DNA of 33,776 bases from a virus (IMGVR_UViG_3300036779_000276:1-33776), one strand, 5' to 3'. Positions 23,064 to 33,776 are shown, numbered from the stretch's first letter. Made by a program: numbers and translations. Notes: generated by a model not told the origin, from the sequence alone.

Positions 23064-23834
23064 ATGAAACAACACTCTCTGCCCATCGTCCCCTGGATTG
23101 GCGGCAAACGTCGTCTGGCTAAACATATTTTACCGCTGTTCCCACACCATACCTGTTACGTGGAGCCGTTCTGCGGGGCAGCAGCGCTTTATTTTCTTAA
23201 AGAACCCAGCAAAACCGAAGTCATTAACGATATCAACGGGGAGCTGGTGAACCTCTATCGAGTGGTCAGGCATCATCTGGAAGAGTTCGTCCGCCAGTTC
23301 AAATGGGCGCTGGTCAGCCGTCAGATTTACAAATGGCTGCAGGACACGCCGGAAGAAACCCTGACCGATATCCATCGAGCCGCCCGGTTTTACTATCTGC
23401 AAAAGCAGGCGTTTGGGGGCAAGGTGGCGGATCACACATTTGGCACGTCCACCACCAGTGCGCCTCGTTTTAACCTGCTGCGTATCGAAGAAGAGCTGTC
23501 GATGGCGCACCTGCGCCTTTCCAGAACGCTCATTGAGCATCTGGACTGGCATCAGTGCATAGAGCGTTATGATCGCCCGCACACGCTGTTTTACTGCGAT
23601 CCACCCTACTGGGGAACGGAAGGCTACGGCGTGGAGTTTGGGCTGGAAAACTATGCGCAGATGGCAAAGCTGGCGCGGACCATCAAAGGGAAGATGATTA
23701 TTTCGGTGAACAATATCCCGGAAATGCTAGACGTATTTAAGGGACTAACTATCAAAAACGTCGATATCAGTTACAACCTTAAGGTCACCGGCAAAGCCGT
23801 ACGTCGCTGCGAATTGATTATTTGTAATTTTTGA
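23064..23834 (+). CDS. DNA adenine methyltransferase (Dam/D12 class)
   Basis: 'PWIGGK', SAM-binding 'YVEPFCGAA', 'INDIN' and catalytic 'DPPY'. Confidence 0.95.
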   Translation: MKQHSLPIVPWIGGKRRLAKHILPLFPHHTCYVEPFCGAAALYFLKEPSKTEVINDINGELVNLYRVVRHHLEEFVRQFKWALVSRQIYKWLQDTPEETLTDIHRAARFYYLQKQAFGGKVADHTFGTSTTSAPRFNLLRIEEELSMAHLRLSRTLIEHLDWHQCIERYDRPHTLFYCDPPYWGTEGYGVEFGLENYAQMAKLARTIKGKMIISVNNIPEMLDVFKGLTIKNVDISYNLKVTGKAVRRCELIICNF

Positions 23835-23933: not shown

Positions 23934-24890
23934 TCATGTGATCGTTTTAGATACATTATTGGTAAAATAATCAGGATCTAATTTGAAATTAAAGTTGTTG
24001 TGCTGCGTATTAACACTGTCCAGCAAAACCGACTGACAGGTTTTATTCGGAACCTGTACGGTGCTGCCATTGGGCTTAACAAGCAGACTGCAAGTAATGC
24101 CCAGTGAACCATAGCCTGCGGGAATGCCAGCTCCCACTGGAATACTAAACCGTATGGTATAACCGCGTGGTTTTGTACTCCATTTTACTGATACCTCCCT
24201 GAATTCAGCGGCGTACTTATCCAGACCGGGAAATTCATGGCGGATCGCGGGAAGGACTTTGTGTATGAGTGCATTACGGGCGGTTAGCGTAAATTCTCTG
24301 GATGGCTTTATCTGATTGCTGTCAGCAAGCGAATTTTCTGACGGAATAGCCAGACCAATGCCGATCCCAGCCATCAAAATAGCAAGCAATGAACAGTAAT
24401 GTTTCCACCGGGGGGCTGTAGGGATGGGTAATGACGATTGCGTTTGCTGTCTGGCAAACGCCAGCGCTTGTTGCAATTCCTCTTTTTTCAAATTTAGCAG
24501 CCAGGAATCACCAAATTGTAGGCGGCAGTAATCTTCAATAATGCCTTTATCCAGTTTTTTCCCCAGTGTCAGGATATCACCCACCAGAGATTTACGGGAT
24601 TTAGTTTCAAGCGCGGCGGTTTTCATTCTGATTAAGCAGTGTTCTGCGGTGCTGTACTGACTTTTGGTAATTTCGTCGATACCATCAACACCCAACGCAG
24701 CATGTACTCTTAACCAGATAATGGCACCGTGCTCACCGGTTATATCAATGGTTTCTTCTACCAGCTGGTTCAGCATTTTTCGCTGAGACTTTGCCAGTGG
24801 CGGATCATCTGGTGGTGCAACAGGCAATGTTACATTGAAAACATCGCCACCCGCGACAACGCCAGTGTCACCATGAAAAGATTGCGTCAT
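23934..24890 (-). CDS. Accessory single-pass membrane protein downstream of the repressor; function unknown
   Basis: ATG 24890 behind AGGAG; N-terminal Gly-rich motif, helical domain, TM 'CSLLAILMAGIGIGLAIP', and a C-terminal domain with two Cys; visibly more AT-rich than the late genes. Confidence 0.85.
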   Translation of the reverse strand: MTQSFHGDTGVVAGGDVFNVTLPVAPPDDPPLAKSQRKMLNQLVEETIDITGEHGAIIWLRVHAALGVDGIDEITKSQYSTAEHCLIRMKTAALETKSRKSLVGDILTLGKKLDKGIIEDYCRLQFGDSWLLNLKKEELQQALAFARQQTQSSLPIPTAPRWKHYCSLLAILMAGIGIGLAIPSENSLADSNQIKPSREFTLTARNALIHKVLPAIRHEFPGLDKYAAEFREVSVKWSTKPRGYTIRFSIPVGAGIPAGYGSLGITCSLLVKPNGSTVQVPNKTCQSVLLDSVNTQHNNFNFKLDPDYFTNNVSKTIT

Positions 24891-24963
24891 GTTCACTCTC
24901 CTTGAACCAGCCCAGAACATCCTGCTACCCAGTGAGTACTTCTGTGCGCTGCCTTGAGCCAGC

Positions 24964-25392
24964 TTACTGTTTTTTCTTACCACCTACGTTGAAGGTCACA
25001 CCTTTCTCATAAGTTGCATCACCCTTGATTACCTGACCCACACTCCCGTGAAAAATTTGTTCAGCCCTTTCATTTGAACCACCGGCAGTTAATGCAGCAA
25101 GGGCTGCGGCTTTAACTACCAGAGGAGCCTTCCGGTAGTGTTGCACCAGCTCTGATTCATCTCTCGATAAAGCCACACCACCTGATTTTTCGCCGGTAAG
25201 AATATATTGAATATCGGCCCCTGCTTGCGCGAAAGAAACCAACACATCTCCTCCTGGCACTGCTATACCACGTTCATACTTTCCCCACATTTCCCGAGAA
25301 ATGCCGCACATGCTTGCTAGTTCATTCTGTTTAAGGGACAGGCGGGTGCGTTCTGATTTAAGTCGTGCCGCACAAAGAGAATCAAAGTTCAC
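24964..25392 (-). CDS. Prophage repressor (XRE/Cro-CI HTH) without peptidase domain
   Basis: 'RLKSERTRLSLKQNELASMCGISREMWGKYERG..PG...GADIQYILTG' HTH; divergent from the early operon; GTG start at 25392 is inferred. Confidence 0.92.
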   Translation of the reverse strand: MNFDSLCAARLKSERTRLSLKQNELASMCGISREMWGKYERGIAVPGGDVLVSFAQAGADIQYILTGEKSGGVALSRDESELVQHYRKAPLVVKAAALAALTAGGSNERAEQIFHGSVGQVIKGDATYEKGVTFNVGGKKKQ

Positions 25393-25431
25393 AAAAACCC
25401 CATTGACAATGAGAATTAAAGTTCTCATAAT
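25377..25431 (+). promoter_or_regulatory. Early promoter with two repressor operators
   Basis: TTGACA (25403-25408), 17 nt, CATAAT (25426-25431); dyad ATGAGAA-N6-TTCTCAT (25409-25428) fills the spacer; second copy GAGAATCAAAGTTCACA at 25377-25393. Confidence 0.85.
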
Positions 25432-25476: not shown

Positions 25477-25668
25477 ATGACCCCCGAGCAACTCAAAGCA
25501 CAATTCCGTTCAGAAGGTAAAACCTTTAGTCAGTGGGCTAAAGATAATGGTTACAACCCGCTTGACGTTTACCGCGTTACCAACGGTCTGACTAAAGCCA
25601 AATATGGCAAAGGTCATGAGATAGCTGTGAAGCTTGGCCTGAAGCCAGACAGCGACACTTCAATATAG
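25477..25668 (+). CDS. Ner/Cro-like DNA-binding protein (BcepMu gp16-like)
   Basis: 'MTPEQLKAQF...GKTFSQWAKDNGY...KYGKGHEIAVKLGLK'; first early gene; AGGAG RBS. Confidence 0.88.
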   Translation: MTPEQLKAQFRSEGKTFSQWAKDNGYNPLDVYRVTNGLTKAKYGKGHEIAVKLGLKPDSDTSI

Positions 25669-25726
25669 CCATTATTCCGTTTTCAACCAGTGTAACAGCG
25701 TTTCACCTACAGAAAAGAGGGAATGA

Positions 25727-26044
25727 ATGAATCCGTGCACATCATCAAACGCCTCCTCATCCATAAAACGGGCTTTGCGTGTCATGAAAGCATTGAAGGG
25801 GCACTCCCTGAGTGGAGTTTCTAACGGTGAACTGGCCGAAGCTCTGCATGAGTCACCAGCCAATATCAGCCGCACCCTTAACACTCTGGTCGAAGAAGGG
25901 ATGGCTCAACGCCTGGAGTCTGGCCGGTATGCCCCAGGCATGCAGCTGTTGCAGATTGCCCAGTCATTTGCCAGTGAAATGGCCGCGACCCAGACCAGAA
26001 TTGCTGAAATGAACCAACGTGTGCTGAGCGGCAGCAGAAATTAA
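25727..26044 (+). CDS. IclR-type HTH protein
   Basis: 'RALRVMKAL...GVSNGELAEALHESPANISRTLNTLVEEG...GRY' winged HTH. Confidence 0.85.
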   Translation: MNPCTSSNASSSIKRALRVMKALKGHSLSGVSNGELAEALHESPANISRTLNTLVEEGMAQRLESGRYAPGMQLLQIAQSFASEMAATQTRIAEMNQRVLSGSRN

Positions 26045-33497: not shown

Positions 33498-33776
33498 ATG
33501 TTTGATGTGTCGCTGTTGAATTTGCCCTGGGCGACCCTGGTTACCCTCGCCTGTGGCTATATAGGCTATTTCATTGCGAACGTGGGGCTGAACGAGCATC
33601 ACAGACCGATCGACGTCATGTTTTCCACACTGGTTTTTGGGCTGCTGGCGTCGCTGTTCTACAGTCTGACGCTTCACCTGTACGTCGGTCACTTTCAGCA
33701 GTATCTGGCCACTTTCTCTGCGCTAGCCTTTGGTGCTGGCTCAGGCGCATTCTGGTGCAAATACGCCCGCAAGTGA
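33498..33776 (+). CDS. Multi-pass membrane protein, possibly truncated
   Basis: AAGGA RBS; three hydrophobic segments; stop falls directly after the last TM helix. Confidence 0.7.
   Translation: MFDVSLLNLPWATLVTLACGYIGYFIANVGLNEHHRPIDVMFSTLVFGLLASLFYSLTLHLYVGHFQQYLATFSALAFGAGSGAFWCKYARK

Follow-up and report, generated by a model that had tools for sequence, protein, structure and literature searches.

The window, that is, the whole stretch of 33,776 nt that was analysed (IMGVR_UViG_3300036779_000276:1-33776), is a phage contig of 33.8 kb with a gene order of the BcepMu/B3-like transposable phage type. The head, tail and lysis genes are encoded on the minus strand and the ner-like, IclR-type, transposase, gam-like, gemA and mor-like genes on the plus strand; where no family match exists, some of these early and structural gene names reflect what we take the genes to be. 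The two arms are separated by three genes, for a D12-class adenine methyltransferase, a 318-aa protein (the partner) and an XRE repressor (Table 1). The methyltransferase gene (23064-23834, plus strand) is convergent with the partner gene, and Klebsiella phage KP12 is arranged alike. At the contig end, a hydrophobic ORF (33498-33776, plus strand), which has no significant Pfam match, follows the mor-like gene.

Table 1. Features of the repressor-partner region of the window.
Feature	Position	Strand	Remarks
First early genes, ner-like HTH and IclR-type HTH	25477..26044	+	phrog_925, phrog_1368; Pfam HTH_IclR
Divergent early promoter, TTGACA-17-CATAAT	25403-25431	+	near-consensus; points into the early genes
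Two similar imperfect palindromes, candidate operators	25372-25396 and 25406-25430 (region 25372..25431)		repeat and sequence analysis
XRE/HTH_3 immunity repressor, 142 aa, likely GTG start	24964..25392	-	Pfam, PHROG, position
Repressor tail motif QIFHGSVGQVIKGD, residues 112-125	25018..25059	-	then a spacer, TFNV and a basic C-terminus
Partner gene, 318 aa (P0002)	23934..24890	-	ATG with upstream AAGGAG; phrog_5825, phrog_6521, phrog_10002
Partner N-terminal motif QSFHGDTGVVAGGD, residues 3-16, then VFNV	24843..24884	-	AlphaFold2 monomer pLDDT ~50
Partner cytoplasmic Flk-like domain, residues 25-159	24414..24818	-	NCBIfam PRK10715, E 2e-15
Single predicted membrane helix of partner, ~residues 165-183	24342..24398	-	hydropathy peak 2.0
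Partner C-terminal alpha/beta domain, ~residues 200-305	23976..24293	-	phrog_10002, E 1e-30; tblastn to Klebsiella phage KP12

The repressor matches HTH_31 (E 3e-7) and HTH_3 (E 7e-6) in Pfam as well as PHROG repressor families. As is characteristic of immunity repressors, this XRE HTH gene is divergent from the early operon, here the ner-like and IclR genes, and a pair of palindromes covers the early promoter and the likely repressor start. The palindromes may act as operators, and the ner-like and IclR-type early genes would be under repressor control. The GTG at 25392 is the most likely start codon because the longer ORF crosses the divergent promoter, and the alignment of homologs was also used for this choice. 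The Pfam search gives HTH families only and no S24 peptidase domain in the repressor, in agreement with the initial annotation, and a lambda-type self-cleaving cI, which needs such a domain at its C-terminus, is ruled out.

The partner gene starts 73 nt past the repressor stop on the same strand, and the two genes are likely co-transcribed. The downstream product had been described as a membrane protein, and this is borne out by one hydrophobic segment near residues 164-184, where the AlphaFold2 model places a helix at residues 162-179. The Flk-like domain is modelled as two three-helix bundles (pLDDT >90) and is related to ORF6C and to the GemA N-terminus; among 50 members of the partner family, weak GemA matches were found in 8 and weak ORF6C matches in 6. 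The C-terminal alpha/beta domain is probably periplasmic, and it is variable or missing in some relatives and a separate gene in others. In KP12 (L008:2396-2929) and at one further locus (L045), this phrog_10002 outer domain stands by itself behind the repressor as a predicted secreted protein, and it thus resembles a mobile moron domain that became joined to the partner in the window.

Used at full length, the partner matched only itself in a word-indexed search and nothing in a scan of viral contigs; its relatives were obtained by an exhaustive search with residues 1-152, which returned 77 matches. A look-up of RNA holders for this region gave none. The ESM Atlas yielded no usable match, Foldseek against PDB and BFVD gave nothing at E <=0.001 (the best viral row is an ORF6C protein, E 2e-3), and a profile search of solved structures returned nothing meaningful. 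The top VIA-align results for P0002 were the Sak C-terminal domain, NinB and the Red-beta C-terminal domain (Z 7.2-7.7), and a soluble partner (L019:2945-3607) reached Z 9.6 with an rmsd of 1.6 over 66 residues; small helical bundles can be expected to give values of this order, and the likeness is a weak lead only. The Sak and Red-beta C-terminal domains bind other proteins, including the SSB tail, which is a faint hint of what the partner domain may sense. In a class-wide sample, a Flk-like alignment was present in 1 of 400 genomes, namely the centre genome of the sample, so the module is uncommon outside certain families; in the family samples it was present in 10 of 301 (E <=1e-30), and phrog_6521 in 4 of 301.

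The initial annotation had pointed to a 14-aa motif at the C-terminus of the repressor that recurs at the N-terminus of the partner, and both copies were recovered on the minus strand with 8 of 14 residues identical. Local alignment of the last 40 residues of the repressor with the first 40 of the partner gives a score of 40 (p = 1.5e-4, both sequences shuffled, 20,000 shuffles), and when all 61 junctions between neighbouring ORFs on one strand of the window are compared, this one ranks first (45 vs 31 for the next). Five of the eight shared residues are encoded by different synonymous codons, as had been noted, nucleotide identity over the motif is 20/42 (8, 8 and 4 by codon position), and the repeat finder detected no DNA repeat linking the two sites. 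The statement that both motifs are then followed by FNV holds, but the two FNV are out of register, after one intervening residue in the partner and eight in the repressor. Complex prediction with three repressor tails and three partner N-termini scored 0.02 against a mark of 0.32 and counts neither for binding nor against it, and in the AlphaFold2 monomer of a multi-repeat partner the motif region has a pLDDT <50, a value of little weight because the alignment is poor there.

The pairing is not confined to the window. Loci were collected by repressor-head alignments alone; 306 carried an entire repressor with 500 nt or more of sequence behind it, a cut at <80% identity left 137, and 134 of these had a callable next gene. 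With a match defined as a score >=35 and a shuffle p <=0.05, and with the repressors sorted by a filter that considered only the composition of the tail, the N-terminus of the next gene matched in 55 of 82 repressors with a G/V/N/Q-rich tail vs 5 of 52 others, the filter being crude in that by eye about six non-motif tails were admitted and several real ones missed. Later ORFs matched the tail in 4 of 238 cases, and all four are separated or second partners. The 27 tailed repressors without a next-gene match include some with sub-threshold motifs or more distant partners, and by eye roughly nine have no visible partner motif at all. A tail with no visible partner within the fetched flank is found in Komp_PAO1_1 (L003) and at L102, L120, L318, L322 and L374, and therefore the tail can persist alone; at such loci the partner may lie elsewhere or have been lost, or the tail may also self-assemble. 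Partners with a similar motif also stand beside repressors lacking one (L073, L127, L207). When the search was started from the partner, with a query alignment that included the motif columns, an upstream repressor was found at 9/9 new enterobacterial loci, eight intact and class-matched and one broken. A broken repressor is seen at L236. The Collinsella loci (L141-L159) encode unrelated HTH proteins that scored below the head-score filter and were set aside.

Early genes of the B3/BcepMu-like type accompany 29 of the 55 matched loci, and many others flank a P2-type integrase, as judged by eye. From 203 repressor and 4 partner matches, eight regions of named phages were fetched, and seven of them contain a tailed repressor. 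In six, namely BcepMu, phiE255, phiE202, KS5, RSA1 and 520873, a motif of the same type opens the downstream partner, although in RSA1 a transposase gene lies between the two and in Escherichia phage 520873 (L007) the partner gene is broken across frames. The fetched Komp_PAO1_1 region has no motif-bearing downstream partner, and that of KP12 has neither tail nor partner motif. The accessible sections of the KS5 paper annotate the pair as repressor and membrane protein and carry no comment on the motif (PMC3091744).

Tails score 52.0 with their own partners vs 29.9 +/- 1.6 with permuted ones (maximum 36.4 in 20,000), a contrast that is inflated because the 55 pairs were picked by their own score. 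The own partner is top-scoring in 20 of 55 cases, and in 39 of 55 it does better than the partner that belongs to the repressor with the most similar head; these figures are inflated by the same selection. Motif class agrees within all 55 pairs, under a two-class pattern that was defined by eye after the data had been seen. The class changes nine times on the repressor-head tree, with only three well-supported independent pairs (p 0.25), and twice on the partner-domain tree (29 rows). Therefore, the tail travels with the partner and not with its own head, moving as a cassette block, and much of the class agreement is linkage. The expectation that tail and partner motif would co-occur and covary across Mu-like prophages is thus upheld for co-occurrence and matching by type, and extends to P2-like prophages, while much of the class covariation reflects linkage. 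The stronger argument for specificity is the large number of unlike motif variants, each matched between repressor and its own partner, even where the partner bodies are unrelated (L088, L063, L130, L205, L319/L345, L372/L360, L300/L371, L026 and L025). The match also persists where genes or an IS intervene (RSA1, L056, L351, L360).

The proposal that selection acts on the peptide, and that the match is not a recent DNA duplication, was examined in 41 pairs, three of 44 having been dropped (two spurious matches and one duplicate). Identical residues share their codon in 170 of 404 cases vs 166.9 expected from local codon use. Synonymous sites are thus at chance. Neither a recent duplication nor gene conversion that is still under way is compatible with this, and it is the protein sequence of both peptides that is maintained. 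Recent DNA duplication is rejected on three grounds, i.e., the saturated synonymous sites, the lack of a joining DNA repeat, and third codon positions that are the least conserved. By these comparisons, the motif pair of repressor tail and partner is a real, widespread and selected feature.

The proteins that carry the N-terminal motif are diverse. Among the 55 matched partners, 35 are Flk-like and 20 are other proteins, including types with a zinc ribbon and two helices and short helical proteins with two helices; a membrane helix is predicted in 47/55, and soluble partners without one also occur (L024, L314, L371). In some cases, one tail has two matching partners (L019, L333, L371). At L209, the only locus at which this adaptor form was seen, a tail-less repressor is followed by a 71-aa ORF ending in a motif and then by a membrane protein that starts with the matching motif. 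At L062 (2958-4484), tandem XRE repressor genes precede a single Flk-like partner; the first has the matching tail, and the second resembles the tailed repressor of phage 520873.

In other cases, head and helical domain are joined in one chain. The cI of Pseudomonas phage Gregale (L431:1540-2343, phrog_17822) combines the repressor head (HHalign E 7e-13) with the helical domain (E 1.6e-6), and 200 homologs were found. Head and Flk-like domain are both present in 120/120 of those listed (P0168-P0287), a motif-profile match in 1/120, although the linker is nonetheless G/N/V-rich, and a hydrophobic peak in 7/120, so these fused proteins are mostly soluble. The soluble split partner of L019, in which the matched motif replaces the head, is 30-41% identical to 30 aligned fused proteins. 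This all-in-one XRE-ORF6C-GemA-like family is large and belongs to D3112-like phages; its members have the same head and helical domain as the split pair and differ from it in being fused, mostly soluble, and without a motif-profile match in the linker. No description of the regulation or induction of Gregale-type cI was found in the literature searched. Judging from the fused family, head and helical domain would act together, and co-repression would fit this as well.

A second class of repressors has a helical C-terminal domain and no beta tail (L068, L073, L075, L077, L127, L132, L137, L206, L207, L209, L217, L432). The next gene at these loci encodes a short amphipathic N-terminal helix and, further in, a G/N/V motif. 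This arrangement points to coupling with the repressor through helices, the motif being retained for assembly further on.

The layout recalls the amyloid signalling pairs. BASS1-10 (Bell/NLR) and HET-S/NWD2 are likewise encoded by adjacent collinear genes with a C-terminal motif and then an N-terminal one, and BASS motifs are likewise G/N/Q/V/I-rich and P/L-poor, ~50% identical within pairs and pseudo-repeated in some; the accessible part of the BASS paper gives a pair identity of 43-56%, a depletion of P, L and K and a length of ~20-25 residues (10.1101/2020.01.06.895854). The matched phage motifs contain G 14.9, N 12.2, V 10.3, Q 6.6, I 6.3, K 3.4, L 1.1 and P 0.9%, their median pair identity is 56%, and some partners hold two or three pseudo-repeats. 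A terminal motif shared between adjacent genes and a composition of the BASS/FASS kind are thus both found, with a median aligned length that is slightly short (18 residues vs ~25 in BASS), the amyloid likeness here being read from sequence. According to the accessible part of the same paper, two-component and all-in-one forms both occur in fungal and bacterial amyloid signalling (10.1101/2020.01.06.895854), as they do in the phage repressor family. The carriers are different: the C-terminal motif sits on an XRE repressor, with no Bell/HeLo, TIR, CHAT or similar effector, and the N-terminal one on a membrane or ORF6C-like protein of proteobacterial prophages. No NLR (NB-ARC/NACHT) or TGP receptor was matched by Pfam or NCBIfam in P0002 or the partners scanned, and the model is of small helical bundles. 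Pfam profiles for RHIM, HET-s and sigma motifs gave nothing at E <=1 in the repressor and partner of the window, a search in which short motifs can escape the HMMER filters, and nothing at E <=0.05 in 11 partners including the QIG/QMG-type L130. Membership in BASS is therefore rejected on both carrier domains and membership in RHIM for want of a Pfam match; of the initial annotation's amyloid comparison, the layout, the composition and the existence of fused relatives stand, whereas the RHIM-like label falls.

Closer to phage biology, the Bab/Agp pair (BASS11) of E. coli is likewise a prophage-borne gene pair with a common terminal motif, but its output is cell death via a Bell-like domain and its receptor a TPR-GreA/B-PIN protein, neither of which the phage pair has (10.1101/2024.11.07.622273). 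In the full text searched, which covers few subscription journals, no description of a motif common to a phage repressor and its neighbour was found. The word 'phage' does not occur in the accessible portions of a 2026 review of signalling amyloids (PMC13506858), nor in those of the grammar paper and the BASS paper (10.1101/2020.01.06.895854).

The most economical reading of these comparisons is that repressor and partner are physically coupled through their motifs, which we consider probable. The tail of the repressor and the N-terminus of the partner would bind each other as a matched peptide pair, possibly as stacked beta-arches of the amyloid-signalling type, a form proposed because some partners carry two or three pseudo-repeats and suggested also by composition and pair identity; the chance of this particular form is somewhat short of even. 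Clustering of the partner, set off via its membrane, outer or helical domains, would nucleate the stack, and the membrane-anchored partner would capture the repressor, so that the operators lose it and induction follows without RecA cleavage. The trigger probably differs between phages, because the partners vary widely. Motif-to-motif co-assembly of this kind, probably with sequestration of the repressor, has in our estimate close to an even chance of being correct. The fuller version is more doubtful, in which interchangeable membrane sensors of Mu-like and P2-like prophages nucleate a cross-beta stack that converts and inactivates the matching repressor tail without SOS, two-sensor, adaptor and all-in-one versions exist, and Flk shares the domain of the phage family. 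An irreversible amyloid sits awkwardly with a repressor that needs to stay soluble.

Qtip, an antirepressor of phage VP882, works by sequestering its repressor. The output proposed for the partner would be alike, in that the repressor is captured and prophage induction needs no cleavage by way of RecA; the partner differs from Qtip in being much larger, membrane-anchored and encoded directly after the repressor. To our knowledge, no common terminal motif has been described for Qtip and its repressor.

The partner may instead belong to the repressor itself. The motifs would then rejoin non-covalently the head and the ORF6C/GemA-like domain of a split holo-repressor. Repression would be reinforced or anchored by the partner, whose release or loss would lead to induction. 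The fused family in the cI position of phage Gregale argues for this, as do the soluble split partners close to the C-terminal part of that family and the position of the partner within the presumed repressor operon, owing to which it would be made in lysogens. We regard it as fairly unlikely, since the Flk-like domain is missing from 20 of the 55 matched partners, some tailed repressors are partnerless, and the partner of phage 520873 is broken. The accessible part of the report on ECA41, a BcepMu-like prophage with divergent IclR and DNA-binding genes that is described as resistant to chemical and physical induction, gives the XRE gene ECA3708 as essential by Tn-seq and the next membrane gene ECA3709 as non-essential (PMC13566846). 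A second prophage shows the same pattern, its XRE gene being essential and its next membrane gene LLE50_05060 non-essential; for both, the correspondence with the window is one of gene order and annotation (synteny) only. A dispensable partner suits an inducing or modulating input over an obligate co-repressor, and sequestration is therefore ranked first and co-repression second. In the accessible part of another study, exposure to hydrogen peroxide is followed by a 2- to 10-fold rise of the early genes of BcepMu, the mechanism being called unknown by its authors (PMC2830190), and therefore a damage-linked route may exist.

Sequestration also has to be set against readings in which signals run the other way or the motifs do not meet. 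If signalling starts from the tail of the repressor, with the membrane protein as its effector, a displaced, aggregated or incoming related repressor would nucleate a toxic or excluding membrane assembly, as in abortive infection or superinfection exclusion. Many partners are small with two predicted membrane helices, PHROGs lists phrog_6521 under moron/host takeover, and in the Bab/Agp system of an E. coli prophage the common amyloid motif switches on a killer protein that targets the membrane (10.1101/2024.11.07.622273). Yet PADLOC 2.0 assigns no family to P0002 and one weak match among 8-9 other partners (L073, E 2e-4), soluble partners exist, and in the known pairs the N-terminal motif is on the receptor, which is the position of the partner here, so we hold this reversal to be quite unlikely. 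It seems equally improbable that each protein self-oligomerises by its motif, or that a single host factor, for example a protease, recognises it on both; in either case the match would have arisen by duplication and been inherited as a linked cassette. The C-terminal tail of the Mu repressor is regulatory and protease-linked and would be a precedent; the cassette is indeed linked, and tails without partners and partner motifs without tails occur. On the other hand, one host factor would be incompatible with so many variants, the unlike motif types match within their own pair with saturated synonymous sites, and the match survives intervening genes, an IS and unrelated partner bodies. A functionless relic of a recent small DNA duplication, or a coincidence of composition, would be easiest to credit from the window, where the match is short (14 residues, score 40); it is largely refuted and very improbable, given third codon positions that are least conserved, synonymous identity at chance over the 41 pairs, and a pairing that recurs in 55 non-redundant loci.

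A self-cleavage domain is missing from the repressors of many Mu-like and P2-like prophages. The comparisons made here provide a strong case for coupling between repressor and partner. The matched peptide pair is a precise and cheap handle, as its deletion, swap or overproduction should alter induction or immunity. Should the assembly be amyloid, amyloid signalling would extend from immune cell death to the control of transcription in the life cycle of a virus; otherwise it would still be an undescribed homotypic coupling of phage repressors with varied membrane proteins.

The domain of the partner has a chromosomal counterpart. Flk (Fluke), a regulator of flagellar secretion, has a homologous cytoplasmic helical domain and, like the partner, a C-terminal membrane anchor (PMC13344023). 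The partner has one copy of the domain and scores 57 bits against a cut-off of 353 (PRK10715), and it is therefore rejected as a Flk equivalog, the homology being at the domain level only. The motif profile, built from loci that include close kin of the phage-type relatives, matched 0 of 11 chromosomal Flk proteins vs 52 of 60 phage-type relatives (>=5 bits), and no repressor is adjacent to the chromosomal flk gene at L225. The repeated helical domain of chromosomal Flk is nevertheless common to the phage partner family (window 24414-24818; L225), and a phage origin for Flk, or the reverse, is a possibility.
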